Shown one piece after another: positions 2,107 to 53,900 of a DNA stretch of 64,000 nt. The notes under the pieces were generated by a model. The model saw only the letters and a program-made list of their open reading frames with translations. It was not told the DNA's origin and searched no databases. The stretch is from Heterodontus francisci (Eukaryota). Numbering within the stretch: the first letter of the stretch is position 1; each line of letters starts with the position of its first letter. Position numbers and translations under genes: made by a program. The stretch is from NCBI RefSeq assembly GCF_036365525.1, contig NC_090403.1:51089095-51153094 (forward strand), read 5' to 3'.

Positions 2107-2604
2107 GACAGGACCTTGATTCAACATCTCATCTGAAAGATGACACCTCCAACAATGCAGCACTGGAATGTCAGCCTAGATTATGTGCTCAAATCTCTGA
2201 AGTGGGACTTGAACCCACATCTTTATAACTCTGAGATGAAAGTGCTACCCATAGAAGCATGATTGACACTGACACTGGAGTTTTAGGCAACTATTAACCC
2301 ATTTAAAATAGGCAGGTTCGATCTTATGTAAAAAAAAAACCGCACGGTACTTCATGGAAAAAGTCCGTGAAGTTATCAGCTGTGAACTTCAATTGATTTG
2401 CTCAATTTAAGATTAATTTTCCTGTTCCCATTAACTTGCGGTATCTCAGGTTGTTGGTATTAACAGATCTTGATGTTCTTATTTAGGATTTATCCGCTGA
2501 TGAGGCCATAGTGCTAAAAACTGCTCCAGGAGACTTGCAGGCCGGTCTTTTTTTTAAAAACCACTAAAAATATTTCATGAAATAAAGTCTAAATATAAGA
2601 AGGA

Positions 2605-2698
2605 ACAGCAAATTCTGGAAATACTCAGCAGGTCAGGCAGCATCTGGAAAGAGAAACAGAGCTAACATCTCAGATTGATGAACCTTCGTCAGAACTGG
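2605..2698 (-). mobile_element. Penelope-derived terminal repeat, degenerate hammerhead copy (left arm of inverted pair)
   Basis: CTGGAAATACTCAGCAGGTCAGGCAGCATC...CTTCGTCAGAACT is homologous to the 3' end of the Penelope at 6450-6555. Confidence 0.75.
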
Positions 2699-2699
2699 G

Positions 2700-3370
2700 A
2701 CCTGAGAGAATGGAGTGCTGCAACTTCAGAGGGAGATAGGTTAGAGTGAGTGAGGGCCGCAGAGTAATTGAGATGGCTGATGTCATGCTGGCAAATATCA
2801 ATGAAAAGATCGAGAGAGAGTAAGAGACCAAAGGGATGGGTCCCGGTGGAAGGAAAATTCTAAAGATGGGAGAAAGGGTCAGCTGTGCAGGAGGAAGGGT
2901 CCTGGCCAAAGAAGTGGGTGCGGAGGTGAAGGTGTTAGTAAAAGAGCTCAGTGTTGTGCTGACCTCAAAATTCATTGAGGTGGGAGCGGAAGGGGATGAA
3001 GCTGAGGCCGTTGCAGAGGACTGATTCTCCAGGGTCAGAGAGAGGTTCGTAAAAACATGGCAAGGGTTGAGATTGGAAGAAGGGATGGAGTCAGAGGAAA
3101 GTAAAGGGGAGAAAGGATCGGGAGGGGCATTGATATCCAAGAGTTGTTGAACCTTGTGATCATTGATACATGAAAGGAGAAGGAAAAGCTTTACTAAGGC
3201 ACTATATGAGACAAAAGGTGAAATGGTATTGTGGACAAGGACAGCTTTGAGATAGAGTGAGATGGTGCTGCTGAAGAGAGAGGGTGAGAGTGTGTATGTG
3301 GCAGTGCAAGGTGTTGAGCATGGATCCCAGGATACGGAGAGAGCAGTAGTTTGGGGAACGCTGTCAAAGT
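2700..3370 (-). mobile_element. Decayed LINE ORF2 fragment (L2/CR1 group)
   Basis: Purine-rich on +. Minus-strand frames give broken Ser/Leu/Pro-rich peptides typical of the L2-type endonuclease-linker region; no intact ORF. Confidence 0.45.
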
Positions 3371-3374
3371 CGCC

Positions 3375-3478
3375 AGTTCTGACGAAAGGTCATCAACCTG
3401 AAACATTAACTCTCTTTCTCACTCCACAGAAGCTACTTTTATTTCAGATTTCCAGGATCTGCAGCATTTTGCTCTTGC
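3375..3478 (+). mobile_element. Penelope-derived terminal repeat with hammerhead motif (right arm of inverted pair)
   Basis: AGTT-CTGACGA-A-AGGT-CATCA-ACCT-GAAAC-ATT-AACT at 3375-3411, followed by TTTCAGATTTCCAGGATCTGCAGCATTTTGC. Confidence 0.75.
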
Positions 3479-3740
3479 AAATATAAATATGACTGAGTTA
3501 TCTGAGCTTCGAGGACAGGGTTTGTTCACCTTGCCCTAATACAATATCAGCCTGTGAAGTTGTGAGGTGGAAATTTTTTTTCATTCTTTCATGGGATGTG
3601 GCCGTCGCTGGCAAGACCGGCATTTGTTGTCCATCTCTAATTGCCCTTAACAACTGAGGAGCTTGCTAGGTCATTTCAGAGGGCAGTTAAGAGTCAGCCA
3701 CATTGTCTGGGTCTGGAGTCACATATAGGCCAGACTGGGG

Positions 3741-4843
3741 AATTTGGCAAATTGGATTCAAAATTGGCTCAGTGGCAGAAGGCAGAGGGTGATGGGAGAG
3801 GGTTGTTTTTGTGAATGGAGGACTGTGACCAGTGGTATACTGCAGGGATCGGTACTGGGACCCTTACTGTTTATAGTGTACATTAATGATTTAGACGTGA
3901 ATATAGAAGGTGTGATCGGTAAGTTCGCAGATGACACAAAAATTGGTGGTGTCGTAAATAGTGAGGAGGAAAGCCTTAGATTACAGGACGATATAGATGG
4001 GCTGGTAAGATGGGCGGAGCAGTGGCAAATGGAGTTTAATCCTGAGAAGTGTGATGTGATGCACTTTGGGAGGTCTAACAAGGCAATGGAATATACAATG
4101 GATGGTAGAACCCAGGGGAGTGCAGAGGGTCAGAGGGACCTTGGGATGCTTGTCCATAGATCACTGAAGGCAGCAGCACGGGTAGATAAGGTGGTTAGGA
4201 AGGCATATGGGATACTTGCCTTTATTAGCTGAGGCATAGAATATAAGAGCAGGGAGGTTATGATGGAGCTGTATAAAATGTTAGTTGGGCCACAGCTGGA
4301 GTACTGTGTACAGTTCTGGTTACCACACAATAGGACGGATGTGATTGCAATGGAGAGGGTGCAGAGGAGATTTACCAGGATGTTGCCTGGGCTGGAGCAT
4401 TTCAGATTATGAAGATAGATGGGGTTGTTTTCCTTGGAGCGGAGAAGGCTGAGGGGAGGGGCCTGATTGAGATATACAAAATTATGAGGGGCATTGATAG
4501 GATAGCTAGGAAGAAACTTTTTCCCTTAGCAGAGAGGTCAATAACTAGGGGGCATAGATTTAAGATAAGGGGCAGGAGGTTTAGAGGGGAGTTGAGAAAG
4601 AATTTTTTCACCCAGAGGGTGGTTGGAATCTGGAACACACTGCCTGAAGGGGTGGTAGAGGCAGGAACACTCATGACATTCAAGAAGTATTTAGATGAGC
4701 ACTTGAAACGCCAGAGCATACAAGGCTAACAGGCCAAGTACGGAGATATGGGATTAGTTAGGACGGGTGCTTGATGGTCGGTGCAGGCGCGTTGGGCCGA
4801 AGGGCCTGTTTCTGTGCTGTAAAACTCTATGACTCTATGACTA
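3741..4843 (+). mobile_element. CR1 LINE, 5'-truncated (RT C-terminal part and 3' UTR), nested in a short repeat (3575-3740 / 4844-5072)
   Basis: ORFs 3744-4232 ([21 protein letters not shown]) and 4409-4729 (NFFTQRVVGIWNTLP); (CTCTATGA)n-like tail. An uninterrupted copy of the host repeat lies at ~36345-36665. Confidence 0.9.
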
Positions 4844-5683
4844 GGTAAGGACAGCAGATTTCCTTTGCTAAAGGAAATTAGTGAACCAGATGGGTTTTTA
4901 CAACGATCAATAATAGTTTAACGGCACCATTACTGAGACGAGCTTTCAATTCCAGATTTTTTATTAATTAATTAAATTTTAATTCCACCAGCATTTGAAA
5001 CCATGTGCCCAGGGCATTAGCCTGGGCCCCTGGATGACCAGTCCAATGACATTACTACTTTGCCACCGTCTTACAATATGACTGACACTTTTACAAAAAA
5101 GTTATGAACTCATCTATTTTAGGCAAATATGTTTAGTAAATCTAATATTGAAACATTGAAAATCACTTTAGTTGTCCTAGGACCAGGAGGGGTAAAGTCA
5201 GAAAGAAAGAGCTTGCATTTCTGAAGCACCTTTCACATTGCCTCATTGGCAGATAAATCCTAAATCAGAACATCGAGATCTGTAAGTACCTGCAACTTGA
5301 GATAACGCAAATTAATGGGCCGAGGGAAATTGAGCTTAAATTGAGAAAAATCAATTGGTGAAATTCACAACTGAAAACTTCACAACCTTTTTCTTCAAAT
5401 TCCTTTGAGCTGTTTTTACATTAGGTTCAACCTGTTTCTTTTAAATGCTTGTTTAAAATTGCACCTAGTGTGAGCAGTGGCTCAACGGTAACACTCTCAG
5501 CTCAGAGTTTAGAAGGATGCCCCAAAGCAAATTATAGCCAATAAAAATGTTTTCACAGATGTAATGCAACCATATTGTTGCACAGCAAGGGTGCCTCAAC
5601 AATAAGGAGATAAATGGGATATTCTATTTTTGGTGTTGTTGGTTGAGGGTTAAGTGTTAGCCAGGACATCAGGAGAATTAATA

Positions 5684-5818
5684 CAAAAGCAAAATACTGC
5701 AGATGCTGGAAATCTGAAAGTAAAACAGAAAATGCTGGAAATACTCAGCAGGTCTGGCAGCATCTGTGGAGAGAGAAGCAGAGTTAACGTTTCAGGTCGA
5801 TGACCTTTCATCAGAACT
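5684..5818 (-). mobile_element. Penelope-derived short element
   Basis: AAAAGCAAAATACTGCAGATGCTGGAAATCTG...TCATCAGAACT, near-identical to the Penelope 3' terminus at 6450-6555. Confidence 0.85.
5782..5818 (-). ncRNA. Minimal type I hammerhead ribozyme (intact core)
   Basis: Minus strand reads AGTT-CTGATGA-A-AGGTC-ATC-GACCT-GAAAC-GTT-AACT. This gives stem I AGTT/AACT, CUGAUGA box, 5-bp stem II, GAAA box, palindromic ACGT stem III and GUU cleavage triplet. Confidence 0.8.
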
Positions 5819-6099
5819 GCAGTTAACTCTATACCTGTCATGGGTGCTAGTGCTGGTACTAAGCCACAGTACTGACACATCATCTGAAGTTGCTGCTCTG
5901 GTAACTTACTGGCTGACCCCTTTCAAAAGGCCATATTTAGACATCTGCTGCAGACAAGATAAACCTCAGTTGCAGAGCCCCCATGTTTGAATAACTTGCT
6001 GAAACTCACAAAAGAAGAAAGGCTGTATGGGCAATGTACTGCAAGCTGCCTGCTTCTGTCACATGTACTTTCCCCTCAGCAGAGGAAAGGAGAATTGTA

Positions 6100-6447
6100 A
6101 AATGATACAGAATAGGAGACCATTCAGTCCATCGCGCTAGTGCCAGCTGATTGAAAGAGCTATCCAATTAGTCCCACTTCCCTTGCTCTTTCCCTGTAGC
6201 CCTGCAATTTTTTACCGTCAAGTTTTTATCCAATTCCCCATTGTAAGTTACTGTTGAATCTGCTTTCACCACACTTTCAGGCAATGCATTCCAGATGATA
6301 ATAACTCACTGCGTTAAAACATTTCTGCTCGTCTCCCCTCTGATTCTTTTGCCAAATATCTTAAATCGGTGTCATCTGGTTACTGACCTGACAGCCAATA
6401 GAAATAAGTCTCTGCTTATGTACGTTATCAAAACCCTTCATAATTTT
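6100..6447 (-). mobile_element. CR1 LINE 3' fragment
   Basis: Reverse complement of the CR1 3' end (CATTCCAGAT..ACTCACTGCGTTAAAAC, CCCTTCATAATTTT). Confidence 0.7.
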
Positions 6448-6449
6448 GA

Positions 6450-7887
6450 GCAAATAAGAACAAGAAATGCTGGAAATACTCAGCAGGTCTGGCAGCATCT
6501 ATGGTGAGAGAAGCAGAGTTAACGTTTCAGGTCAGTGACCCCTTCTTCAGAACTGGCAAATATTAGAAATGTGAAAGGTTATAAGCAAGTAAAGCAGGGG
6601 TGGGGCAAGAGATAACAAAGAAGAAGGTGTTGATAGGACAAGGTCACAGAATAGCTGACCAGAAGATCATGGAGCAAAGGCAAACAATATGTTAATGGTG
6701 TGTTGAAAGACAAAGCATTAGTACAGATAGGGTGTTAATGGACTGAAAACTGAACAGCCACAAGCACAAACATGGAAAAAAAGGTAAGCAAACTGAACAA
6801 ACTAAGATGAAATAAAATAAAACAATCACAAAAAATATATAAAAAAGAAAAAATAACCAAAAATAAAAGTAAAATGGGGGCTCCGTCATGCTCTGAAATT
6901 ATTGAACTCAATGTTCAGTCCGGCAGGCTGTAGTGTGCCTAATCGGTAAATGCTGTTCCTCGAGCTTGCGTTGATGTTCACTGGAACACTGCAGTAATCC
7001 CAGGACAGAGATGTGAGCATGAGAGCAGGGGGGAGTGTTGAAATGGCAAGCAACCTGAAGCTCGGGTCCTGCTTGCGGACTGAGTGGAGGTGTTCCGCAA
7101 AGCGGTCACCCAGTCTGCGTTTGGTCTCCCCAATGTAGAGGAGACCACATTGTGAGCAGTGAATACAGTATACTACATTGAAAGAAGTACAAGTAAATCG
7201 CTGCTTCACCTGAAAGGAGTGTTTGGGGCCTTGGATAGTGAGGAGAGAGGAGGTAAATGGGCAGGTATTACACCTCCTGAGATTGCAGGGGAAGGTGCCT
7301 GGGAAGGGGACTAGTTGGTGGGGGTAATGGAGGAGTGGACCAGGGTGTTGCGGACGGAACGAGCCCTTCGGAATGCTGACAGTGGAAGGGAGGGGAAGAT
7401 GCGTTTGGTAGTGACATCACGCTGGAGGTGGCAGAAATGGCGGAGGATGATCCTTTGGATATGGAGGCTGATGGGATGGAATGTGAGGACAAGGGGAACC
7501 CTCTCACGGTTCTGGGAGGGAGGGGAAGGGGTGAGGGTAGAGGTGCGGGAAATGGGCCGGACACAGTTGAGGACCCTGTCAATCACAGTGGGGGGGGAAT
7601 CCTCGGTTGAGGAAAAAGGAAGACTTATCAGAAGCGCTGTCATGGAAGGTAGCATCATCAGAGCAGATGCGTCGGAGACGGAGAAACTGGGAGAATGGAA
7701 TGGAGTCCCTACAGGAGGTAGGGTGTGAAGAAGTGTAGTCGAGGTAGCTGTGGGAGTCGGTGGGCTTATAATGGATTTTAGTAGACAATCTATCCCCAGA
7801 GATGAAGACACAGAAGTCGAGGAAAGGAAGGGAAGTGTCGGCGATGGGCCATGTAAAGGTGAGAGAAGGGTGGAAATTAGAAGCAAC
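6450..7887 (-). mobile_element. Penelope-like element (probably Neptune group), 5'-truncated: RT C-terminus, GIY-YIG endonuclease, terminal repeat
   Basis: Minus-strand peptides LPFLDFCVFISGDRLSTKIHYKPTDSHSYLDYTSSHP..SQFLRLRRICSDD (PLE RT thumb) and FTCTSFNVVYCIHCSQCGLLYIGETKRRLGDRFAEH (GIY-YIG); frameshifted. Confidence 0.92.
6517..6554 (-). ncRNA. Hammerhead ribozyme motif at Penelope 3' terminus
   Basis: Minus strand AGTT-CTGAAGA-AGG-GGTCA-C-TGACC-T-GAAAC-GTT-AACT; stem II register slightly distorted. Confidence 0.7.
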
Positions 7888-8518
7888 AATTTTAAGCTCC
7901 TCCATTAAATTTCCCCTTAACATTCTCTGCTCTAAGGAGGAAATGGTATTTACACTCAATGTTTACTCATGCACCAGGTTTATATTTTAATAACAACAGC
8001 TTGTATTTACATAGCGCTTTTAACGTGGGTAAAACATCCTAAGTGGAGTAAGGAGAAAATGGAGACTGAGCCAAAGGTGATATTAGGAGTGGTGACTAAA
8101 AGCTTTGTCGAAGAGATGGGTTTTAAAGAGGGCCTTAAAAAGACGACAGGGAGGGAAGAGACTGCCAGTTTACCAATTCTGGTTGGATGTTCTGCTGTAG
8201 ATTTCATCACATGACCTCCCACCTCCAATCTCTCTGCCCAGTTAAACAGATTTTTGTAACTATGTTTATAATTAATAAACTGGTATTTGAAGAAAATAAA
8301 AGAAACATTTTTTAACGCCTCAATGATTTTTCTCACAGGCTTCTCGCAAATGTATCCTGGAGATTAATCTGTAATTCCTGGAGGCTGCAGGACAAACGTG
8401 GAGGGGTTATCAACCCAAAGAGGTAAATGAAATTCCAGAAAGTGAGGGCTGAGCAGTTAAAGCCCCGTCTGCCAATGGTGGGGCAAAAGGAGGGGGAGAG
8501 ATGCTCAAGAGACTGGAT

Positions 8519-8878
8519 TAAAGCATGGCTACCCACCCGAACCCAACGGGACCCGACGACTTTGTCGGGTTCGGGTCGGGTTGGGTCGGATTACTCTTCT
8601 GGGTCCGGCATTCAGGCTCGGGTCGAGTCGGGCTGGGTCGGACACAATGGCAGCCAGGACGTCACAGAGGGAAACACTCCGCACTAGTCTGCAGTGAGCG
8701 ATTCCATCCAAGGTGGAGCACAACCTCTTTAATATAATCAACTTTATTCCGGTGGTCGGGTCGAGTCGGGTCAGGCGCGGGAAAAAAATGAAAGGACTCG
8801 GGCCGGGTCGGGCTCAGGTCGGATGTGGTTCTGTCGGGCTTGGGTCGGGTTTCATTTGCAGACCTGCGCAGGCCTTTA
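8519..8878 (+). mobile_element. hAT-type MITE with subterminal (CCCGA/TCGGG)n repeats
   Basis: Ends TAAAGCATG...CAGGCCTTTA; imperfect 8-bp TSD GACTGGAT (8511-8518) / GGCTGGAC (8879-8886). Confidence 0.8.
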
Positions 8879-9353
8879 GGCTGGACTCCGAGGAATAGTG
8901 AGATTGGCAAACAGTGACCATACTTGGGAAACCTGGCCTTCCCTAGCCCAGGGTTGCATTGGCAATTGTAGCATCTGAATTTCAGCACGAGCTGAGATGA
9001 TCTGGAACCAAACCAGGGGTTTTCCTGCTCTACTTAAGTTGGGTTTGTTCATTACAGGAATTTTGGATGCAATAAATTAGCATACAAATCCAACATCCAT
9101 TTGGATTATTAAACGCAGCGTGAATGTGATGTATGAACCTGTAATTCTGATTTTAATCAACACTTCATTTCTAAACCATACTCAGCAGGAGCAGAACAGA
9201 ACATGCTGAGTTGCAGCTGCCGCGCATGTTTAATTGCTCACTCTCCCACGTTCTGCATGAGTGTGCTCAGAATTGCAATGGTCGATTGCCACAAGGAGCT
9301 CGTGGGTGCCCTCTGCTGGTCGGAACATTATTTTATTTACATGACCTCAGGAC

Positions 9354-9720
9354 GAAAGGCCTGCTTGGGTATAAAATTGAAACCCAAGCCAGGCCCGACC
9401 CGACCACAGCCAACCCGAACCCGACCCGTGCCCGAGTCCTTTAACTTTTTTCGTGCCCGACCAGATCTGACTCGACACAAATATCGCAATAAATTTAATG
9501 ATATCAAACATATTAATGTACTGTACCTTGTCCAAATGTAATACTTGTGATCCTGTCCATTTGTTCTGGCAGCAGACTATTCCTGCAGTTTGAGGTGTGG
9601 GGGATCATGGGTGAGCCTGATCCCCTGAGGTCCAGGAGGAAACACTGTCTAACCCGACCTGACCCGAATCCTGGACTCAGAATATAGAGCCGATCCGACC
9701 CGAACCCGACACAGGCTTTA
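9354..9720 (-). mobile_element. hAT-type MITE, same family, opposite orientation
   Basis: Ends GAAAGGCCTG...CAGGCTTTA; perfect 8-bp TSD CTCAGGAC (9346-9353 and 9721-9728); CCCGA repeats. Confidence 0.88.
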
Positions 9721-11489: not shown

Positions 11490-14265
11490 TTGACTTAGAT
11501 GAAGGGACCGAAGGTATGGTTGCTAAATTTGCTGATGACACAAAGATAGGTAGGAAAGTAACTTGTGAAGAGGACATAAGGAGGCTATAAAAGGGATACA
11601 GATAGGTTAAGTAAGTGGTCAAAGACCTGGCAAATGGAGCATAATGTGGGAAAGTGGGAAATTGTCCATTTTGGCAGGAAGAATACTCATATTCATATAT
11701 AAGGAGAAAGAGGGTAACTAGAGAAAGGATTGGCCCACTAAAGGACAAAGGAGGAATGTTATGCTTGGACTCAGAGAAAATGGGTGAGATTCTAAACGAG
11801 TACTTTGCATCGGTATTCACCGAGGAGAGGGACATGACGGATGTTGAGGTTAGGAACAGATGTTTGATTACTCTAGGTCAAGTCGGCATAAGGAGGGAGG
11901 AAGTGTTGGGTATTCTAAAGGGCATTAAGGTGGACAAGTCCCCAGGTCCGGATGGGATCTATCCCAGGTTACTGAGGGAAGCGAGAGAGGAAATAGCTGG
12001 GGCCTTAACAGATATCTTTGCAGCATCCTTAAACACGGGTGAGGTCCCGGAGGACTGGAGAATTGTTAATGTTGTCCCCTTGTTTAAGAAGGGTAGCAGG
12101 GATAATCCAGGTAATTATAGACCGGTGAGCCTGACGTCAGTGGTAGGGAAGCTGCTGGAGAAGATACTGAGGGATAGGATCTATTCCCATTTGGAAGAAA
12201 ATGGGCTCATCAGTGATAGGCAACATGGTTTTGTGCAGGGAAGGTCATGTCTTACCAACTTAATAGAATTCTTTGAGGAAGTGACAAAGTTGATTGATGA
12301 GGGAAGGGCTGTCGATGTCATATACATGGACTTCAGTAAGGCGTTTGATAAGGTTCCCCATGGCAGGCTGATGGAGAAAGTGAAGGCGCTTGGGGTCCAA
12401 GGTGTACTAGCTAGATGGATAAAGAACTGGCTGGGCAACAGGAGACAGAGAGTAGCAGTAGAAGGGAGTTTCTCAAAATGGAGACGTGTGACCAGTAGTG
12501 TTCCACAGGGATCCGTGCTGGGACCACTGTTGTTTGTGATATACATTAATGATTTGGAGGAAAGTATAGGTGGACTGATTAGCAAGTTTGCAGACGACAC
12601 TAAGATTGGTGGAGTAGCAGATAGTGAAGGGGACTGTCAGAGAATACAGCAGAATATAGATAGATTGGAGAGTTGGGCAGAGAAATGGCAGATGGAGTTC
12701 AATCAGGGCAAATGCGAGGTGATGCATTTTGGAAGATCCAATTCAAGAGTGAACTATACAGTAAATGGAAAAGTCCTGGGGAAAATTGATGTCCAGAGAG
12801 ATTTGGGTGTTCAGGTCCACTGTTCCCTGAAGGTGGCAGCGCAGGTAAATAGAGTGGTCAAGAAGGCATACGGCATGCTTTCCTTCATCGGACAGGGCAT
12901 TGAGTACAAGAGTTGGCAGGTCATGTTACAGTTGTATAGGACTTTGGTTCGGCCACATTTGGAATACTGCGTACAGTTCTGGTCGCCACATTATCAAAAG
13001 GATGTGGATGCTTTGGAGAGGGTGCAGAGGAGGTTCACCAGGATGTTGCCTGGTATGGAGGGCGCTAGCTATGAAGAGAGGTTGAGTAGATTAGGATTAT
13101 TTTCATTAGAAAGACGGAGGTTGAGGGGGGACCTGATTGAGGTGTACAAAATCATGAGAGGTATAGACAGGGTGGATAGCAAGAGGCTTTTTCCCAGAGT
13201 GGGGGTTTCAATTACTAGAGGACACGAGTTCAAAGTGAAAGGGGAAAAGTTTAGGGGGGATATGCGTGGAAAGTTCTTTACGCAGAGGGTGGTGGGCACC
13301 TGGAACGCATTGCCAGCGGAGGTGGTAGATGCGGGCACGATGGAGTCTTTTAAGATGTATCTAGACAGATACATGAATGGGCAGGAAGAAAAGAGATACA
13401 GAACCTTAGAAAATAGGCGACATGTTTAGAGAGAGGATCTGGATCGGCGCAGGCTTGGAGGGCCGAAGGGCCTGTTCCTGTGCTGTAATTATCTTTGTTC
13501 TTTGTAAAAGAAGCATATTATGTAAATGGTGAGAGATTGCAGAGCTCTGAGATGCAGAGGGATCTGGGCGTCCTAGTGCAAGAGTCACGAAAGGTTAGTA
13601 TGCAGGTACAGCACGTAATTAGGAAAGCTAATAGAATGTTATCATTTACCGCGAGGAGAATTGAATACAAAAGTAGGGAGGTTATGCTACAGCTGTACAG
13701 GGCATTGGTGAGACCACATCTGGAGTACTGTGTACAGTACTGGTCTCCTTATTTAAGCAAGGATGTAAAGGCGTTGGAGGCAGTACAGAGAAGGTTTACT
13801 AGACTAATACTTGGAATGGGCGGGCTGTCTTACGAGGAAAGATTGGACAGGCTAGGCTTGTATCCACTGGAATTTAGAAGAGTGACTGGTGACTTGATTG
13901 AAACATGTAAGATCCTGAGGGGTCTTGACAGGGTGGATGTGGAAAGGATGTTTCCCCTTGTGGGAGAATCTAGAACTAGGGGTCACTGTTTAAGAATAAG
14001 GGGTCACCCATTTAAGACAGAGATGAGGAGAAATTTTTTCTCTCATAGGGTCATGAGTCTTTGGAATTCTCTTCCTCAAAAGGTGGTGGAAGCAGTCTTT
14101 GAATATTTTTAAGGCAGAGGTAGATAGATTCTTGATAAGCAAGGGGATGGAAGGTTATCGGGTGTAAGTGGAAATGTGGAGTAATAAGTTCAGCCATGAA
14201 CTTATTGAATGGCGGAGCAGGCTCGAAGGGCCGAGTGGCCTACTCCTGCTCCTAATTAGTATGTA
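11490..14265 (+). mobile_element. Older CR1 LINE split into 11490-11685 and 13506-14265 by a younger CR1
   Basis: Left part ([13 protein letters not shown]...TTGGCAGGAAGAATA) joins the right part (AAAAGAAGCATATTA...; ORF 13495-14112 LVRPHLEYCVQYWSP). The uninterrupted junction is seen in the copy at 51103-51750. Confidence 0.88.
11686..13505 (+). mobile_element. Young CR1 LINE, 5'-truncated, with uninterrupted reverse transcriptase ORF (~580 aa)
   Basis: ORF 11654-13429 has [43 protein letters not shown] and KFADDTK with no stops; (TCTTTGT)n tail. Confidence 0.95.
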
Positions 14266-15062
14266 CATATATTTGTATGGGATGCGGCCATCGCTGGCTA
14301 GGGAGCATTTGTTACCCATCCTTAATTGCCCTTGAAATTCCATCCAGACCAAGAAAAAAGTACAACTAACTAACATTTCTATTGCCTCAGGTAAGGAAAT
14401 CAGCCACACCTATCTGGTCTGGCCTACATACACTATGGGATTGAGTCTTAATGACCCACGCAACTAGGGATGGGCAATAAATGCTTATTTTCCAGTGTCA
14501 CCCACATCCCAAAACCAAAACTAATTCTCCCAACGAGAGTCCCAAAGTAGCATGAATACTCTTACAGACCTGACTTCCGTGAAACCCCTGGCTGGCAGAT
14601 AACCAAATGTTTGGATAATGGGGTGGTTTCTCAGTACTTGTATTGCTAACGTGTTTTGAGAAACACTGGTAACATAGTAAAAGAGCTCTGAATGTATTGA
14701 TGCAATTATGTAATTGTACCCTCTATCAAACGTCACACCAATTCTTATTATTCATACTTTATGTTAAAACTTAAGAAAAACATGCAGACTGTCCCTGGAG
14801 TTGAGGAAGCACCAAGTTTCCCAGCAGACTTTTAAAACTCAGAGCTGGAGCAATGCAACTCTAGCCCTTCCTCACTCAACAGCCTCCATGACCCTGTCCC
14901 CTTGCATAAGGACAACAATTCTGATAACTCACAACTGCGTAGTGTCATTGTGTACCTGCAACAGTGTAAACTAATTCAACTAAAAGGAGAAGCATAAAAA
15001 CATTGTGCAAACGGAATTTAACATGACCAAATTAGTTATTTACACCCTGTTTGTTCTACTCT

Positions 15063-15715
15063 GAGTGTCCTCAGTACCTTGCTCTACGGCAGTGAGGCCT
15101 GGACAACGTATGTCAGCCAAGAGCGACGTCTCAATTCATTCCATCCTCGCTGCCTCCGGAGAATACTTGGCATCAGGTGGCAGGACCGTATCTCCAACAC
15201 AGTAGTCTTCGAGGCGGCCAACATCCCCAGCATATACACCTTACTGAGTCAGCGGCGCCTGAGAAGGCTTGGCCATGTGAGCCGCATGGAAGATGGCAGG
15301 ATCCCCAAGGACACATTGTTCAGCGAGCTCGTCACTGGTACCAGACCCACCGGCCGTCCATGTCTCCGCTTTAAAGACGTCTGCAAACGCGACATGAAGT
15401 CCTGTGACATTGATCACAAGTCGTGGGAGTCAGTTGCCAGCGTTCGCCAGAGCTAGCGGGCAGCCATAAAGGCGGGGCTAAAGTGTGGCGATTCGAAGAG
15501 ACTTAGCAGTTGGCAGGAAAAAAGGCAGAAGCGCAAGGAGAGAGCCAACTGTGTAACAGCCCCGACAACCAATTTTATCTGCAGCGCCTGTGGAAGAGTC
15601 TGTCACTCTAGAATTGGCCTTTATAGCCACTCCAGGTGCTGCTTCACAAACCACTGACCACCACCAGGCGCTTACCCATTGTCTCTCGAGACAAGGAGGC
15701 CAAAGGGAAAGAGAG
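15063..15715 (+). mobile_element. RTE-clade (BovB-like) LINE 3' fragment
   Basis: LYGSEAWT..FHPRCLRRILGIRWQDRISN..RRLRRLGHVSRMEDGRIPK..GRPCLRFKDVCKRDMK, then the C-terminal Zn-finger FICSACGRVCHSRIGLYSH. Confidence 0.9.
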
Positions 15716-18721: not shown

Positions 18722-20194
18722 GAACAACGACCCAGCCCTCTGGTCACTAATTGGCCAATTTGGGGAAAACTACAGATAAGCGACTGTTCCCCACACAGGG
18801 CTGGTATTTGTTGAGCTCCCAGTGTCGGGCTCTGTTGTGGGGGGGGGGGTTGCGGGGGCTGGTGGGGGGGGGTTGCCAGAAGATTGCAGCGGCAGCAGCC
18901 AGCCATGGAGCCCGACACCGGGAATGCCGGGCCCGATCTTTGATCTTCCCAGTGACGGGGAGGCTCTGTGGCAGGACCCAGATTTCAATATTAAAATCAC
19001 CTAATTAAATACATTTAAATGAAGGCCGGAGCAAGCTTACTGGAAGTTCCAGATCTTCCAAGCCATGTGCAGCACTCCTGCCGCCGAGGTGGGGAAGGGG
19101 GGTGTGGGGGGAGCTCTGCATTTGTCGTTAAGTGGGTTGGGGGGAAGGGCTCAACTCTGCACCTAATGCAGTTGGGATGGAAAGGGGGTAATCAGGGCTT
19201 TTCTGGTGCAGTTGAGGGGGTGGGGTGGGTTAAACTTTATTTTTTGTTGTAGTTGTGTGTGTGGGGGGGGAGTCAACTTTCATCTGTCAACAGGGGCCTG
19301 GCAGCCCTTTAAAAATGGCGCCAGCAACTGCGCAGAAACAGGCGCTGCCCTGGCCACGTGATTGGAGGGGGAGGGGGAGGTCGGCCGCCCTGCATATTAA
19401 AATGAGTTGCCGCACGCTAGATCGCGGTGGCATGGCGGCACGCGGCCTTTCACCTGCTGCAGCTCCCAGCGATAGGAAAATAACATCCAACCCACAAGGT
19501 GGGCTTCTGACCTATTGAGCCTGATGATAGGGTCCGGAAGCCCAAAGCGAAAATCCTGCCCTATGTCTCTGTTCTTCAACCCCCTTTAAAATGATACCAT
19601 TTAGTCCTGTAACGTTTAGTGATTTATGTATGGGAAGTATACTATTGAATTGTATTCACTGTGGTTTTGTAGGCAAATGCAACAGCCAATTTACCCAGAG
19701 CAAGGTCCGACAGATAGCAATAAGATAAATAACCAACTAATTTGTCTTTGACTGGATGAAATTCAGTTAGAATAGGCAAATTCCCCAGCTTTTCTTAGAA
19801 TAGTGTCATGAAATATTTAATCTTAACCTTTCATCTGAGAGACAGCACCACCACAATGGATACCTCGGCACTGGTATCAGCCTAGATAATGTACTTAGAT
19901 TCGCTAGTGGGGATTGAACCCAAACTAACTGACTCAAAGTCAGGAGTGTTGCTACTGAACCATAAGCGATTGGATAAAGGAGCAGAGGGTTGCCAGCACC
20001 TTTGGAACTTCATGTTGAGTTCTGTTACCGACATGACCAAACAGGGGGAAAAAAAGAATAACCTGTCATGATACTGACATGACATGCAAGTGGCATGCTT
20101 AATTTATTTGCATCATTGTGTTTGTTCAGAAAATGGAACAAAGTTTCCCAACTGTCTTAAACTAGCGGCCCTCCAGATCAGATTTCATATTACA

Positions 20195-21150: not shown

Positions 21151-22349
21151 TATGAAGTGTTATTCTATGTATACATTGGCTTTTGAGGCATTGGATTTTG
21201 AGGTCAGCAGCAGACAAATGGTGCTGGCTGTTCATTACACTTAAACTTGACCATAGCCTTTCTATGGGCTTTTGCACTGGAACTTGTGGTGAATAGAAAT
21301 TGAAAACAGAACCACACTCTCCACAGGGGATCTGGGACCTGTATGAACAATTAACAGATCAGATTGCAGACTCCTTATTGGGACATGTAGAGTTTGTGTC
21401 AGTTAGACTATTTAATTCAATGTCAAATCATGTATAGAAAGCATAATAGAGACAGGGAAATAAAGGTGGGATTAGGCGAGAGATGAAAGACAGAGAAAGA
21501 AAACATTCAAAAAAACAATATTTTTAATGTTTTTAAAATCTCAAACAATAATTAAAATTTTCAGGAATGAGACTCCACACTTGTAAATGTTAAATTTCAG
21601 TGCCAGAGAAGTTGTTTGCCTGTAATTAAGACTTAGCACGCCATTAAAAATTCACTTACACTTGAATGGACAACCCTAACTTTTGTTCTGGCGTGTTTAG
21701 TGGGTACGCACCCCAACTTCACACTGTTGCATGTGTTTCAATGGCATGAGCTACCGGTATAGCCAAGCTTCTGGAAGCCAGACAATGATTTGCTGATTTG
21801 GGTGTGTAACTGAGCATGTGCAGTCACTAGAAATTTCTGTCTGATTTACTTTGTAATAACAGTGAGCGCTGTTAGCTCCTTTTCTCTACAGCAAATTCTG
21901 AGCAAATCTATTCTTCTGCTAAGATGGCCTGTGTCCCTTTTTAAGGCTGCCTTGAGTTGTTGTTTGGTGAGTGAACTTGGCAGATTATTATGTGCTTGTC
22001 TGTTTCAAGGTGTGATTACATAGGTTATAGAGCAGGCCATTTGGTCCAATCAGTCCAGGCCAGCATTTATGGTCTACCCAAGCCTCCTCCTCTCGTTCCT
22101 TATCTAACTCTATCAGCATAACCCTCAATTCCATTCTCCCTCTGATGCTTATCTAGCCACCCCTTAAATGCATCAACACTATTCGCTTTAAACACTGCAT
22201 GTGGTAGCAAGTTCCAAATTCTCATCACTCTCTGGAAAAAGAAGTTTCTTCTGAATTGACTAGGTGAATTCTTGGTGACTGACTATCTGGTCTGATGACT
22301 ACCAGGTCTGGGTAGGCCACCAAAACGAATTAGCTGCTGGCAAAATCTC

Positions 22350-22386
22350 AGTTCTGAGGAAAGGTCACAGACCTGAAACGTTAACT
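22350..22386 (+). ncRNA. Minimal type I hammerhead ribozyme (intact core) in a Penelope-derived element (22350-22470)
   Basis: AGTT-CTGAGGA-A-AGGTC-ACA-GACCT-GAAAC-GTT-AACT; all core nucleotides and stems preserved. Confidence 0.78.
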
Positions 22387-22589
22387 GTTTACCTCTCCAT
22401 AGGTGCTGCCAGACCTGCAGAGTATTTTGTTTTTATTTCAGATTCCCAGCATCCGCAATATTTTGCTTTTAAAATCTCTCCATACTTGTTTTTAATGGCA
22501 ATAACCATCTCTATTGCGTTAAAGGCGCTATATCAATCAAAGTTGTTGTTGTAACCCTGCTTGATAAGATCCTGCAACTTTCTGCCATT

Positions 22590-27349: not shown

Positions 27350-27484
27350 ACCCTCCTAAAAGCACTTGCTTTGTCTATACTCTGTGGCTTGGTGAGTTGT
27401 CAAGGATGGGGACAGTAATTCATTACTTTTGGTGAGATTGCCGCTGCTTTGTGCTGTAGAATCTCAATCCGTGGTGGAACAAAG
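27350..27484 (+). ncRNA. SNORA21: H/ACA box snoRNA SNORA21-like, copy 1 (RPL23 intron 3)
   Basis: CCCTCCTAAAAGCACT...GTCAAGGATGGG hairpin, H box ACAGTA (27412-27417), second hairpin with GGTGAG..CTCAATCC, ACA box 27479-27481. Resembles human SNORA21, whose host gene is RPL23. Confidence 0.88.
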
Positions 27485-28211: not shown

Positions 28212-28373
<162 letters not shown>

Positions 28374-28627: not shown

Positions 28628-28763
28628 CCCTCCCTAAAAGCACTTGCTTTGCCTCTTATCCGTGGCTGAGCAAATTGTCGAGGGAGGGCAGAGGAACACA
28701 TTGCCTTTGGGTGAGGTGGCAGCTGCCTCGTGCTGTCCAATCTCAATCCGCGGTGTGACAAGT
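28628..28763 (+). ncRNA. SNORA21: H/ACA box snoRNA SNORA21-like, copy 2 (RPL23 intron 4)
   Basis: CCCTCCCTAAAAGCACTTGC...GTCGAGGGAGGG hairpin, H box AGAGGA (28690-28695), GGGTGAG..CTCAATCCG hairpin, ACA box 28758-28760; clear paralogue of copy 1. Confidence 0.9.
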
Positions 28764-32832: not shown

Positions 32833-32965
32833 AAAAGCAAAATACTGCGGATGCTGGAAATCTGAAATAAAAACAAGAAATGCTGGAATCACTCAGCAGG
32901 TCTGGCAGCATCTGTGGAAAGAGAAGCAGAGTTAACGTTTCAGGTCTGTGACCTTTCATCAAACC
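32833..32965 (-). mobile_element. Penelope-derived short element, hammerhead core damaged
   Basis: AAAAGCAAAATACTGCGGATGCTGG...GAGTTAACGTTTCAGGTCTGTGACCTTTCATCAAA; core reads TTGATGA and stem I is lost. Confidence 0.8.
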
Positions 32966-32994
32966 CTGATGAACCCTTTCATCACATCTGAGAA

Positions 32995-35179: not shown

Positions 35180-36325
35180 CAACATAAAAGGTTATTGTGC
35201 AAAGTAGGAGCTCATGGTTTAGGAGGTAACATATTAGCATGGATAGAAGATTGGCTGGCAGAAAACAGAGTATGAATAAATGGGTCCTTTTCTGATTGGC
35301 AGGATGTGACGAGTGGAGTCCCGCAGGGGTCTGTGCTGGGGCCTCAACTTTTTACAATTTATATCAATGACTTAGATGAGGAGAGCGAAGGCATGGTAGC
35401 TAAATTTGCAGATGACACAAAGATAGGTAGGAAAGTATGTTGTGAAGAGGACATAAGGGGTTACAGACTGCTATAGACAGGTTGAGTGAGTGGGTAAAAA
35501 TCTGGCAGATGGAGTACATGTGGGAAAATATGAAGTTATTTGGCAGGATGGATTAAAAAAGCAGAATATTACTTAAACGGAGAATGACTGCAGAATTCCG
35601 AGTAGCAGAGGGATCTAGGTGTTTTAGTACATGAGTCACAAAAAGTTAGTATGCAGGTACAGCAAGTAATAAAGAAGCCTAATGGAATGCTATCCTTTAT
35701 TATGAGAGGAATTGAAAATAAAAGTAAGGATGTTATGTTTCAGTTATATAGGACATTGGTGATACCACATCTCGAATGCAGTGTGCAGTTTTGGCCTCTT
35801 TATTTAAGGAATAAATTGGAGGTGGTTCAGAGGACGTTTACGAGATTGATACCTGGAATGAGCGGGTTGTCGTATGAGGAAAGGTTGGACAGACTGGGCT
35901 TGTTTTCACTGGAGTTTAGAAGAGTGAGGGGAAACTTGACTGATGTATATAAGATCCTGAACGGTCTTGACAAGGTGGATGTGGAAAGGATGTTTCCTCT
36001 TGTGGGAGAGTCCAGAACTAAGAGGCACTGTTTTAAAATTACGGGTCGCCCTTTTAGGACAGAGATGAGGAGAAATTCTTTCTCTCAGGGGGTTGTACAA
36101 CTTTGGAATTCTTTGCCTCAGAAGGTGGTGAAGGCGGGACAGTGAATATTTTTAAGGTGAAGGTAGATAGATTCTTGTTAGGCAAGGGAATCAAAGCTTA
36201 TTGGGAGTAGATGGGAGTGTGGAATTCGAGACCGAAACAGATCAGCCATGATCTTATTGAGTGGCAGAGCAGGCATGAGGGGCTGATTGGCCTACATCTG
36301 CTCCTAATCCGTATGGTCCTATGGT
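35180..36325 (+). mobile_element. CR1 LINE, 5'-truncated, decayed
   Basis: [22 protein letters not shown] 35651-36145 and CR1 3' UTR. Confidence 0.88.
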
Positions 36326-37354: not shown

Positions 37355-38625
37355 GTATGTAGTTTTAAATCCTTTTGAAGAAAATTAGTTCTGTTGTCTT
37401 ATTTATTGATTTTGTTTTCAGTATAGATCAGATATTTCAAAAAGGGGAGAACTGACTGTGGAAGCAAATGCCCCAAACTTTGAAATTACCCACTGTTTGC
37501 GTCTAGAACAAAATGTTTTACAAATAAATGTTAGATCTAAGGGTTAGATCAAACGGGTGCCTGCCCTTTTAAAAAATTCAAGCAGCAACATCTGACCCCC
37601 ACTTAGTTCCCATCGACTCGGAAAGTGCAGGAATTCCAGGTGCAATCCCACAGTGGTATTATCTGGATTTATCTGATACTATAGGAGGTTTTTATGTTGA
37701 GAAAACTGACTAAAGGACCATGGTCCATACTGTAAGGTAGCATAAAGGATAAAAACGTAGGACAGATAATGAGGTAAATCAGTAAGTAATGTTTATGTGG
37801 TGCCAGGTTTACTATGATTAGTCAACAACTTCATTATTGTTACATCATGTGACTAGCAGATGACAGAAGGCAAACTAGTTGGACCGTGGTCCTTTTTTCC
37901 ATCTAGTGATTCCTATGTAAGTTAATATTTTAACGGTTGCAGATTGTAAGTGGAAGGGAAGATCGAGAAAGTGAGGAGTTGCATTGTTTTGAGGTCCCGG
38001 AATGGAATGAGTTCCATTCACGGACATTGCAGTGAGACTTGATTTTACCATAGCCACAATGTGAATTGTGACAGGCAAGCATAAGAGGGCTTCCTAAGTT
38101 ATCAAGTTATCTAGCTGAGTGATATTTGGAGATACACGTGTCTCATAGATGTGACAAAAAAGACATTTGGCTTAAAAAAAACCTCAAAATAGTAAAACCT
38201 CAGCAAGATTTGTCCACCAACTGAGAGTACTCTTAAATGGCTATGGTGAAAAAGATAATATTTCAGACCATGGAAGCAAGTGAATTACTTTAACATAGTG
38301 ATTTCAGGAAACATCTAACATAGTGTCCCACCAAAATGTAAACCAATTATATCTATTTCTTACAGGTGCTGACTGATCTGCTATGTTTTATTTCTCTTAC
38401 ACAATCCAATAATTAATATCTTGTTAGGTCAAAGGTCCTCCTGGCTGGGGACAAACCTACAGAGGCCACAACAGCATTTAACTAAAAATCAAAAGATGAT
38501 CAGTATCTTAATTCAGAGCATTTGCAATGATCAAGACAGGTTTGCAATTACTTTCACAAGATTACGAATAGGACTGGTGTGTAAAGTTGGGATAGAAAAA
38601 AGAAGGCTTATTAAACAGTAACTGC

Positions 38626-38735
38626 AGTTCTAATGAAAAGTAATTGACCTGAAACATTAACTCTGTTTCTCTCTCCACAGATGCTGCCTGACCTGCTGAG
38701 TATTTCCAGCATTTTCTGTTTTTATTTCAGATTTT
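38626..38735 (+). mobile_element. Penelope-derived short element, degenerate hammerhead
   Basis: AGTTCTAATGAAAAGTAATTGACCTGAAACATTAACTC...GCTGAGTATTTCCAGC. Confidence 0.75.
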
Positions 38736-40906
38736 GCTTATTAAGAAATGTTTTTTGATGAGTTTCAAGGTCTCTCCCATTTGAAAGCTTTTGTCCAATG
38801 AAATCAAATTAAGAACCAGTTAAAAGCATTTTCTGTACTTGAAATTTTCCCAAATTTTTTTGAAGTCCGGGTTGTTGGGATGGTTATAATGACATAACCA
38901 AAAATAAAAGCTGTTGCTTTCCCAAAGAAATGAACTTTCTCTGTACTTCATGACATTGACGAACTTTGACACTTTCTTCACAGACAACATCTATGTAGAA
39001 GAGTTAATAAAGAACCTCCAACATGGCACATATGATGAAACCTTAAACTTGGGTGCTGATATTCACAGCTCTGAAATGAAAAATGTTCAATTTTGCAACA
39101 CTGGTATTCCTCAATTCAGCACAAAATACATAACAAAAAACCTCATTAAGTATTATGGATACCAAGTGACATTTTTTATGTCTTTGTGATTTTCTGTGGT
39201 GAGATGAGCACAGCATGAGAGAATCTAATTACTGCAACATTGCAGAAAAACAACCTGTACTTGCTTACAGAAGAATTGCATTCTCAGATTAAGCATACAA
39301 GTGGGAAAGGCAAAATGCCTTTGCTTTCTGCAGACTGATTCCAAATGTACACATTAATGCCATGTTGGTAGTTCCCAGTGAGCTGATGGATAATGGCCAT
39401 TGAATCCAATGACACATGGGGTTATTTGGTGCCTAGCAACATGGCATAGCAACAGCATGTGTCTGATTATCATTGTCTCATGATATGTCTCCTTTTCTGC
39501 TTCTGTCAGGTGCTGCATCACTGCTTTGGAAACAATTTGACATGCAAAGGCATTGAATGGACTTTTATTTTTGTAAATGAGGTGAAATTGAGCATCTGGA
39601 GATAACACATTTCATGGTTTTTGACCCTGATGGTTGGAGCATAGAACAACTTGGGGAAAAATTGCACTGGAAAATAATGAACAATTGACATAGCCCAGTG
39701 CTTACTGCATTGGCAACACTGTCATTAATTGCTCAAGTCTTGTCAAGATTTTCTTGCTTTGAAGTTTCAATGGATAACACTGACCAGTATAAAACTGAGT
39801 CAACTACGGAAGATCCCGAATTCAACCCCTGGAGTACGTTGAGTTTGCTAACCTCAGTGGGAGTGACAGTGGGAACATTACAATGCTCCAGAATGTCCTT
39901 GCTCTCAAAGTTACAATTTGAGCAAAGCCAATGATAGGTGATTTCAGGAAAACTCTCTTCACACAAAGGGTTGTGAGAATTTGGAACACTCTGCCCCAGG
40001 CCGCCATAAATATAAAGTCACTGGAGGTGTTTAAATAGAGATTTTTTTTAAAATTGTGCAGTGAGGACATTAAGGGATTCTTTAAAAATAAACTGCAAAT
40101 GCTGGAAATCTGAAACAAGCAGAAAATTATGGAAATAACTGAATGGTACACCTCTGAATCACCACCCTCTCTCTTTAGGATTCGAACTGTCTTGTGTATT
40201 TCCAATATTACCTGTGTTTATTAAGGGATATGGAGGAGAGGCAGGAAATTGAGCTTAAAAGGCAGAACTTCCACGGCTAACAAAAAAAATGATGGGAGCA
40301 GACTCGTTGGGTTGAATGACCTACTTGTGTTTCTATTGATGAATTAAAGCAATCTTTGGTTGTACTTGGAGTACTGCGAACAGTTCTGGTTCCCACACTA
40401 CGAAAGGGATATTAAAGCACTGGAGAAAATGCCGTAAAGATTTACAAGGATGTTCCCAGAATTGAGAGGATGTACTTAGCAGGATAGATTGAAAAGACTG
40501 GGGTTCTTTTCTCTGGAAAAGAGAAGACTAAGGAGATCTGATAAAGGTCTTTATAATTATGGCAGCTTCGGTAGAGAAGATGTGGAGGAATTGTTTTCAT
40601 GTGTGGCTGAGTCCAGAATAAATGGGTATAAATATAAGAGCCACTAACAGATCAAACAAAGAATTTAGGAGGAATTTCTTTACCTGGAGGGTGGTGAATG
40701 CGGAACTTGCTGCCAGTAGGATTGGTTGAAGTAAATAGCATCGACACAGTTAAGGGGAGGCTTAATGCGAGAGAAATGAATAGAGGGTTATGGGAAGAGG
40801 GTGGGAATTGGTAATTGGAATGGGAGGAAGCTTTAGTGAAGAATAAACACTGGCATGGGTTAAATGGCCTGTTTCTGTGTTGTAGATTCCATATAAAACT
40901 CAATAA

Positions 40907-41101
<195 letters not shown>

Positions 41102-43614
41102 CACAGACGCAAAATCCAACAGTGAAAAGACTTAGGACTGCAAACTTTTATATCATTCTTTTCAACATCGACAGGAATGCATATTTTTTACAAGGACCAT
41201 TGTTGATATCAGAGATCTTGGAGAGTTGAAAAATCAATCATCAATTGCTACATTTTTAAATAATTAGCATTATAAGGAAGTCACCTCTTCTAGAGAAACA
41301 AATTGAATGTGGTAATTCTGTGATTATCAAGAATGTCTGTGTAAACAATATATTGTATGTGATTGACTATGCAGGACTCCTTAGATCCTAAAATAAAGCA
41401 TGTTTGTAGGGGCAGAATTTTGCAACTGTATATTGTAAGTTAGCTATTTATCCTGTATTTGATATTATAGATTTCTGCATGGAGGAATTCTTGCTTTGAA
41501 CAGTTCTATTCAAATTCAGGTTGCCTTACCTACACTGACAGAGAAGAATGGCTCATTTGAAGCATAAACACCAGCACAGACCAGCTGGACTGAATGACCC
41601 TTTCTGTGTGTAAGACAGCATCAATCTTGGTTTTGACAGGCTTAACTGCTGCCACTTGCACTGATTTGCCTTCCATACTATTGGCCACTTGGCTGAGCTA
41701 CCTGGGAGTAGGTGGCACTTGTGAAACTGTGCCCAGGCAAGACTAATTTGTACCTTCAGATGTGGCGAGAAAAGGGGAGAAATTGGAAAAGTAAAAACCT
41801 TTACACCACAACATTTTCTGCCATATTTTGTTCCAATTTGGAAATATAGATTGCCACATGTGAGAAGAGCTCTGCCACAAGAGTTTCCACATTTGGTTTA
41901 AGCACCATTTACATTTGAACCACACGTTGATTTCCCTGCTTCACTGTATGCCATTGTTACTAGACAATTTTTGCTACACAGGGGTATAAAGTTTTCAGAG
42001 TCAAGGCAGGTGCTTGGAATTAATATACAGATCAGCCATGATATCATTGAATGGTACGTGCTACTAGGTTAGAAAGTCATGGATTGGAAAGTCATGGGTT
42101 CAAGGTCCACACTAGTTCTTGGGCTTAGAATTCAGACCAACAAAATTTAGATGTTAAACGAGTCTTTGTCTGTCTCTTCAGGTGGATTTGGTGCCATTCC
42201 CCTGGTATCCTGGCCAACATTCCTCCCACAACCTGTACCACCAAAAAAAAGCAACTGATTGGCTACCATAATTGTGTATATGTCAGTTGTGGCTCTGTGA
42301 GTAGCACTGATATCTCTGACTCAGAAGGTTGTGGGTTCAAATCCTACCTCAGAGGCTAGAAAATAAAATCAAGGGTGATATTCCAGTGTAGTTCTGAGGG
42401 AGTGCTATACTGTCAGAAGTGCCATCTTTTGCAAAATGCTTTGGGATGCTGTGAAAAGTGCTATATAAATGCAAGTCTTCATTTTACATAACTATTACTC
42501 AACTCCAAAAAGGCATTCATTGTGTGAACTGCTTAGATTTTAGAGATGTTTTTGACAATGTGATAAAGCACTGCATAAAATGTAAGTATTTCTTTCTTTT
42601 GTTACAATCAGGTGAGGAGGGGTCAAAGGGCTCCCCTCTTTTCCTTCTCCTTGTTTGACCACAACAGGTTTATTTCTTTTTGAAGTGGATATACTTACCA
42701 AGTCAATGAATATTTAACTGTTTACATGCTGTGATCATAAAAATATTCCAATCGGACAGGTTTTCTTGAGTTTAACAAAGAAAAAGGTTAGCTTTATTGT
42801 ACTTAAACCTATCTAAGTAAAAATTTAAAAAAATGCTCCACTTTCAAGCACACACACACGAAGTTCACACACACACACACACACAAATAGATTACAGAGT
42901 GGTGAAGGATAGATTGGTTTAATTTGAATTAGAGTCCAGAGAAATAAAAGGGGTATACAATCTGTGGAGGTTGTTGACTCGGCTGGGTTCAGGTTGAATT
43001 CAGTGGTCGTGCGACTTTAGTGGTACTGAGGCTTCTGATTTGAAGATGTGGATGGTTGATTCAGTGGTTCTCCTGGAGACAGCAATGTGACTGATTTCCT
43101 TCAAAGAGTCTTGGTCTGCAGCAGGGGTATGCCTGGGTGGTCATGGTCAGCAGGCAGGGTTCAAAGCTTGCAAGGTGGATTGGAGAGAGAGAAAAGGAGG
43201 GACCCCACTTGGGTCTTCGCTCTTCAGCTTCTAGCTGCTTGTCTCTCTACTGCAGAGAAAACACCAGCTTAAGCACACAAGGGTGGGCCTGTCACATGAC
43301 CATCACCCAGTGATTCAAACATGGTGGTTACTAGTGTGCATTCCCACTTGCAACTTAATCAATCCATGTCTAGGAATTCCCTTCTTACAGCTATGGTCCC
43401 ATCGTTCAAGTGATTAGGTTTGAATGGTTCATCTCTACCAGTTGAATATTCAGGTATTGGCCTTGATCCCTTGCTGATTGGAATAGATAGGTTGTTCATT
43501 CAGATTCCCCAGGTCCTTGTTCTTGATGGGTCTGTGCAGACAGGCTGTCTCCATCTCAATGCACTGGAATGTGGAAAGATGTAAAATGGAGTGGCCATCT
43601 TGAGCTGCCAGCAT

Positions 43615-46040: not shown

Positions 46041-46083
46041 CTTTGCTGTCAAAATGTGACACACCTGGTAGATTAAATTGTCC

Positions 46084-46156
46084 ACTAAAGTAAAAGCAAA
46101 ATACTGCAGATGCTGAAAATCCGAAACAAAAACAAGAAATGCTGGAAATACTCAGC
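46084..46156 (-). mobile_element. Penelope terminal fragment inserted within the ERV
   Basis: AAAAGCAAAATACTGCAGATGCTG..GAAATACTCAGC flanked by the 14-bp direct repeat AGATTAAATTGTCC (46070-46083, 46157-46170). Confidence 0.85.
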
Positions 46157-46179
46157 AGATTAAATTGTCCGCCAGGCAT

Positions 46180-46470
46180 ATAGTAGTTCTTTGCAGGATA
46201 TTACATAAAGGGGCTGGCTTTAGGTCAAATCCATCAGTAAGGTTCCTGCGATACCCAACAAGGCCCAAAAATGATCTCAGAGCCTTAGTATCTTGTGGTA
46301 GGGGGAGTTGGAAGTTTGAGGATTGTCTGTACTCGCATCTGCTCTGTCTCACGCTTTCCCTGTGTTATCACTATTCTCAAATAATAAACCTTTTCTTTCA
46401 ATATCTGTGCCTTTTCCGGGTTAACTTTCACTCCAACCTTCCAAAGGAGTTGAAGGAGCTCCTCCAGTAG
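46180..46470 (-). pseudogene. Retroviral reverse transcriptase fragment (post-YxDD palm and thumb)
   Basis: LLEELLQLLWKVGVKVNPEKAQILKEKVYYL..., then after a frameshift LPQDTKALRSFLGLVGYRRNLTDGF..APL. Confidence 0.85.
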
Positions 46471-53882: not shown

Positions 53883-53900
53883 ATGGGTGGCGGTGACCTA
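53883..53900 (+). CDS. CWC25: Pre-mRNA splicing factor CWC25, exon 1
   Basis: ATG GGT GGC GGT GAC CTA | GTGAGT = MGGGDL in a CpG-rich context. Confidence 0.93.

Follow-up and report, generated by a model that had tools for sequence, protein, structure and literature searches.

Hammerhead motifs in the window

The window, that is the whole stretch of 64,000 nucleotides of the Heterodontus francisci genome that was analysed, contains a series of pieces derived from the terminus of a Penelope-like element (PLE), and every hammerhead motif within it heads one common module of about 100-135 nt. A sequence-only reading of the same DNA had placed the motif at seven sites, and its presence at all seven was confirmed. 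The pieces are listed below, with subfamilies named after the base pair at positions 10.1-11.1 of stem II.

2604..2698 (-): decayed terminal copy, motif 2660-2696
2699..3364 (-): fragment of the 5' part of the open reading frame (ORF; unit positions 310-987, 72% identity), which abuts the hammerhead start directly
3374..3477 (+): inverted terminal copy, motif 3375-3411; one insertion with 2699..3364 and 2604..2698
5688..5819 (-): short solo terminal copy made up of the hammerhead and about 95 nt that take in the tail; its 5' junction carries a small inverted piece
5782..5818 (-): minimal hammerhead motif of the old A-U subfamily, intact, with a cut predicted to follow GUU, between 5786 and 5785
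6456..7886 (-): Penelope-like copy, truncated at its 5' end and frameshifted, that shares 88% identity with the young full unit
6517..6554 (-): hammerhead motif of the 6456..7886 copy, G·U subfamily, with one additional G ahead of stem II
22349..22470 (+): short solo terminal copy; intact motif 22350-22386
32833..32966 (-): short terminal copy, motif 32930-32966 without its 5' end
38625..38739 (+): short terminal copy whose motif, 38626-38662, is decayed
46092..46158 (-): piece of the tail of this terminus that lacks the motif

The motifs at 5782-5818 and 22350-22386 are intact, as had been stated, and the copy at 6517-6554, described as near-intact and attached to a Penelope ORF, departs from the motif by a single extra G and indeed terminates a 1.5-kb piece with a weak GIY-YIG match, which retains the end of the reverse transcriptase (RT), a CX4CxxC linker, the GIY-YIG domain, the 3' untranslated region and the terminus. 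The copy at 3375-3411 is less intact than had been claimed, as it contains a mismatch in stem II and a G16.2>A substitution that breaks the palindrome. The remaining three motifs (2660-2696, 32930-32966 and 38626-38662) are decayed, as reported; the copies at 2660 and 3375, however, belong to a single insertion, and thus the seven motifs represent at most six insertions rather than seven separate ones.

A degenerate 37-nt pattern matched the window four times at up to three mismatches, compared with no matches in 100 shuffled sequences. An Rfam scan returned no hammerhead family match in the window at E values up to 5. As the folding energy of the 37-mers was no better than that of shuffled sequences (z -1.08 to +0.61), the case for a hammerhead rests on the core sequence, the stems and the context in which they occur.

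Core sequence and subfamilies

The motif displays the core of a minimal hammerhead (C(U)GANGA ... GAAA), a NUH triplet and helices I and II, and its earlier description as a minimal type I hammerhead at Penelope termini, palindromic at 15.2-16.2, holds. All subfamilies carry an extra A between positions 9 and 10.1, together with the ACGU palindrome. The extra base had been likened to that of a viroid hammerhead, a precedent that is not needed because the feature is conserved in the minimal hammerheads of PLEs, which, according to Cervera & de la Peña (2014, PMC4209133), are marked by an additional base after position 9 and before 10.1, a G10.1-C11.1 pair and a palindromic 15.2-16.2, and occur mostly as solo copies derived from truncated elements. 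The shark motif, with G10.1-C11.1 in its young form, shares all of these, as well as the type I topology, the 4-bp helix I and the lack of a helix III loop, with the hammerheads described in that paper, which are reported in fish Neptune elements; it differs from them in its 5-bp helix II, its GUU triplet and its dominant U4C core. Judged by these published features the hammerhead is of a kind already known, and sharks are unnamed in the main text of that report.

When exact 32-nt cores were counted genome-wide by the pair at 10.1-11.1, there were 41,809 with G-C, 14,255 with G·U, 6,943 with A-U (a count that covers U4 cores only) and 348 with the mismatched A·C. Mean divergence of the tail declines from 0.077 in the A-U subfamily (n=9) through 0.043 in G·U (n=3) to 0.002 in G-C (n=12), ordering these from old to young. 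The consensus proposed in the sequence-only reading is that of the oldest subfamily, which is the form that the window mostly shows, whereas the dominant young form is CCGAAGA with a G-C closing pair. The U4C substitution was present in 49 of 52 aligned young copies and in 93 of the first 100 G-C matches listed. The subfamilies differ at U4, N7, the loop, the 10.1-11.1 pair and H17, and the invariant core positions are unchanged. In four public runs from other organisms, represented by assembled contigs that are mostly presumed RNA, differences of at least 8% within the motif were located at U4, N7, 11.1 and H17, and one of the runs also differed at the first base. In run X10, compared with L103:2359, about a quarter of the depth has C at position 17, which creates a canonical GUC triplet in a related family.

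One stem II pair is compensated across subfamilies, but a hand-picked alignment of 12 sequences gave no signal above shuffles. A metagenome scan for relatives yielded one locus, with no motif in the sequence displayed, and hence no covariation among distant relatives. It had been predicted that the core would be better preserved than its flanks. Among the copies that aligned through -6..+49 (52 of 100 young and 14 of 30 older), this was not clearly the case: core and flanks contained 5/416 and 60/2124 differences, respectively, in young copies (p 0.06, where junction bases inflate the count for the flanks), and 5/140 and 12/293 in older ones (p 1.0). Such an absence of core conservation is to be expected if the inserts are dead. 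Inserted copies thus appear to decay neutrally, and constraint, visible between subfamilies only, would act on the source elements, a proposal that rests on the one covarying pair.

The autonomous element

The unit from which these pieces derive is 3.3 kb in length and contains an ORF of ~906 aa, encoding an RT and GIY-YIG, with a hammerhead at both ends. A protein search of the genome gave 132,832 first-look candidates, of which 150 were scored, and 20 long-frame loci were examined. At the two near-complete loci, L101 and L103, the motif flanks a 906-914-aa ORF on each side, at a spacing of 3.30 kb. The protein carries DKG, YIDD, a CX4CxxC linker and GIY-YIG, the linker preceding GIY-YIG in both proteins, P0001 and P0002. 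Domain matches within the single ORF (RVT_1, E 3e-5; GIY-YIG, E 7e-4) both fall below Pfam's cut-off, and the Atlas protein neighbours of the ORF contain RT and GIY-YIG families.

The element also displays pseudo-LTRs (pLTRs), partial tandems, inverted 5'-truncated copies and a 30-40-bp tail, all of which Craig et al. 2021 (PMC8557442) describe in EN+ PLEs; they also tie a CX2-5CxxC linker to the Neptune and Nematis clades, in which, as here, GIY-YIG is C-terminal. By its linker and architecture, the element is provisionally assigned to the Neptune/Nematis-type Penelope-like retrotransposons. In contrast to the elements of that study, strong microsatellite targeting is not evident among the element junctions displayed.

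About 150 nt separate the first base of the motif from the opening of the long frame. At L103:2382-2474 the hammerhead is followed by a 30-codon upstream frame, in which a TAA stop lies just ahead of, and in frame with, the long ORF; several polypyrimidine-AG sites occur within the same 100 nt, and in the old subfamily a U at position 7 additionally creates an ATG in this frame. At G000:C1:104038117-104044740 three tail-to-ORF junctions are exactly 3,296 bp apart, forming a head-to-tail array of full units. Many of the long ORFs share an out-of-frame C-terminus, which probably reflects their selection by a frameshifted query.

Abundance and the ends of copies

The very high copy number that had been anticipated from the window was supported by random sampling. 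In 80 arbitrarily placed 10-kb stretches of the 6.0-Gb genome (2,306 contigs), which together amount to 789,012 non-N bases, there were 62 terminal pieces, equivalent to ~470,000 genome-wide (Poisson range 360,000-610,000), with inverted partners tallied as separate pieces, and the element occupies 2.2% of the sampled sequence. By comparison, about 4,000-9,000 motifs were reported, through another search method, in coelacanth and Xenopus (PMC4209133). A pattern for the old-type flank gave 38,657 exact matches, more than the A-U core count, an excess that reflects the spread of the flank among subfamilies together with truncation.

A flank pattern lying outside the motif was used to pick 96 young copies, and their ends are strongly clustered. 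Nearly all 3' ends are at +96..+111 or +131..+147, with peaks at ~+97-102 and ~+134-140. At the 5' side, 34 copies end within -3..+6, on either side of the base that opens stem I, and another six at +12, the fold-back point of stem II. There was no excess of 5' ends at the predicted cut (+33), which accounted for one of the 96 copies, itself a 3-nt deletion. As the 5' ends cluster at stem I and not at the cut site, the integrated copies probably derive from uncut RNA. The old subfamily clusters similarly, 19 of 30 copies having 5' ends at -4..+4, in a set whose pattern excludes later starts and in which three of the 19 resemble longer copies with indels. A splice acceptor was considered as the cause of the 5' pile-up and rejected, since no exon lies between the target duplication and the motif.

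The base that precedes AGTTCC is biased. Where it is other than the C of the element it is G in 3,052 cases genome-wide and A or T in 3,130, and A makes up 49 of the first 100 A/T matches listed, giving a G/A ratio of about 2.0. One base further upstream the G:A ratio is 44:56 (first 100 of 1,337), as base composition predicts (GC 0.436). Inspection of 30 G-preceded copies identified 29 true junctions and 10 inverted copies; seven have a target duplication, four of these with a single extra G.

Longer copies behave differently. Only three of 30 copies spanning the tail-to-ORF junction begin in the 5' cluster, all with short ORF parts, and of the 17 copies with 1.5 kb or more of ORF sequence, not one ends at the proposed start, 12 reaching upstream and five stopping downstream of it. 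Long copies thus need read-through, a circular template or a template jump.

Origin of the short copies

With the unit structure, the two sharp 3' ends, the 5' pile-up, the extra G and the compensated stem II pair directly established, we consider it likely (probability about 0.75) that the motif is a minimal hammerhead in the terminal repeat of a Penelope element, and that the short copies arose by reverse transcription of the initial 100-135 nt of its uncut RNA. RNA polymerase II, for which an initiator consensus is established, would start at the A of stem I, inside the initiator-like TCAGTT; the RT of the element would then prime at one of two internal tail sites and run off the capped 5' end, copying the cap as G. 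RTs can copy cap structures, and run-off at a capped 5' end would be the simplest reading of the extra G, although a G-biased untemplated addition without a cap may be an alternative source. Initiator-like sites have been noted in pLTRs in the literature.

The Poseidon element PAc of Anolis carolinensis offers a parallel in that two internal RT starts define the tail, the hammerhead is near the ORF start and uncleaved RNA is the template (Frangieh et al. 2024, PMC11167929). It differs in belonging to a clade without the zinc-finger-like linker and in having an ORF that begins in stem II, and the cited sections of that work contain no report of 5' ends at stem I or of an extra G.

With respect to the ribozyme itself, the two terminal motifs of a unit-length RNA could, by analogy with published relatives, share a 4-bp ACGU helix and act as a dimer. 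The predicted cut after GUU would be slow and probably assisted by protein, as suggested by PMC4209133, PMC11167929 and PMC6765202. Inserted solo copies would be inert without a partner and decay neutrally, selection being confined to source elements. When 60 nt of upstream sequence is included, folding of the young form predicts a rival hairpin that masks stem II (P 0.02), and such masking would favour the 5' copy of the motif. In the window there is one case, at 2699/2698, of an ORF fragment that runs directly into the start of a hammerhead, as a template jump would produce.

A bolder extension, which we offer as possible if doubtful, is that the hammerhead constitutes the first 37 nt of a capped RNA, such that its predicted cleavage would remove the cap and serve as a translation switch rather than a source of circles. 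The short copies would then be strong-stop-like cDNAs, longer-than-unit copies would arise through a retrovirus-like jump of the RT between the 5' and 3' terminal repeats, and the young CCGA core would be a weakened one.

It could be argued instead that multimers are cut to units and circularized, with circles as the templates, and that the 5' pile-up reflects stalling of the RT or a splice site (AG/TT) and not a capped end. A circle model has been proposed for PLEs, and in D. virilis an intron terminates at helix I (PMC4209133); copies of more than unit length are also common in the shark, making up 12 of the 17 long ones, and immediately upstream of the motif there is a branch-point-like CTAAT together with an AG. 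Target duplications, however, are separated from the motif by a single extra base, so that an upstream exon could not fit between them, and the G excess at -1 does not match the exon-end consensus. In addition, an RT blocked by the fold would halt on its 3' side, and the cut site shows no excess of 5' ends. We regard this reading as a whole as unlikely.

Decidedly improbable, in our view, is the proposal that the motif of the young subfamily no longer cleaves and has been retained as a promoter or protein-binding sequence. U at the cut position 17 is sub-optimal for hammerhead cleavage, and the young form unites this base with U4C, which is likewise sub-optimal and nearly universal in the aligned young copies. 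A U4C hammerhead is found in the viroid PLMVd. The masking hairpin predicted for young stem II is consistent with a loss of cleavage, as is the retained ability of PAc ribozyme mutants to insert in vitro (PMC11167929). Against this, the viroid U4C hammerhead, in which CCGA also replaces CUGA, is a natural variant reported to be active in vivo (cited in Perreault et al. 2011, PMC3088659), although there it is a rare variant of the full hammerhead and here the majority form of the minimal motif in a retroelement that expanded recently. Furthermore, the lineage that acquired U4C also gained the canonical G10.1-C11.1 pair while the invariant core positions stayed fixed.

The least probable reading is that the short copies are a non-autonomous family in their own right, a SINE or retrozyme that springs from separate source genes and is mobilized by the Penelope enzyme, as the separate SINE-like family of the sequence-only reading had implied: although short copies far exceed those with ORF sequence (54,905 young flank matches against 1,668 tail-to-ORF junctions genome-wide) and show sharp ends and target duplications, all three stem types and the same two 3' ends occur in short and long copies alike (in a small sample), indicating no source lineage of their own, and the short copies correspond to the last 100-135 nt at the terminus of the autonomous unit; arrays of at least three short units were absent among the 62 pieces in the 80 random stretches, where two decayed direct pairs were the sole tandem-like cases, and the Rfam scan of the window detected no tRNA-like head at the short terminal copies. 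Animal non-LTR retrozymes, proposed as PLE derivatives and found in one chondrichthyan (bioRxiv 10.64898/2026.07.22.740005), likewise have a type I hammerhead and are related to pLTRs, but are built of tandem units each with a hammerhead, whereas the sampled copies here are solo, in inverted pairs or at the ends of ORF-bearing copies.

This study adds to the known PLE hammerheads an excess of G at the 5' junction, a counted series of stem variants and a dominant U4C core. No paper on Penelope hammerheads of this shark family was found in the literature searched, and none among the matches listed deals with a cap-derived G in PLEs; subscription papers, supplements and Repbase/Dfam may cover these subjects. 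Tens of thousands of near-identical young insertions record the sites at which the RT starts and stops, and point to an uncut, probably capped RNA that would begin exactly at stem I. Such start-site evidence bears on the purpose of PLE hammerheads, be it circle formation, decapping or nothing, and the natural series of A-U, G·U, G-C and U4C variants is directly assayable.

Other features of the window

Several features unrelated to the hammerhead were also identified. SNORA21 H/ACA snoRNA matches occur on the forward strand at 27350-27484 and 28628-28763 (59 and 83 bits, respectively), and between them lies an exon (~28240-28355) that we take to be part of the gene for ribosomal protein L23 (RPL23). 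A 594-aa open frame at 11645-13429 (+) matches RVT_1 (E 2e-36) and represents a piece of a CR1-like LINE, further LINE fragments being located at 3729-4729, 13489-14112, 15022-15456, 35606-36145 and 59486-60866. Three broken frames at 44612-46200 (-) resemble a retroviral envelope-like protein with coiled-coil and transmembrane-like stretches. Weak tRNA-like matches below the gathering score, at 19900-19969 (-) and 42295-42355 (+), are probably the heads of tRNA-derived SINEs. Runs of CCCGA-type pentamers at about 8530-8780 and 9400-9500 are possibly the termini of a DNA transposon or MITE, and G-rich tandem repeats with a strong GC skew extend from about 53700 to 55500.
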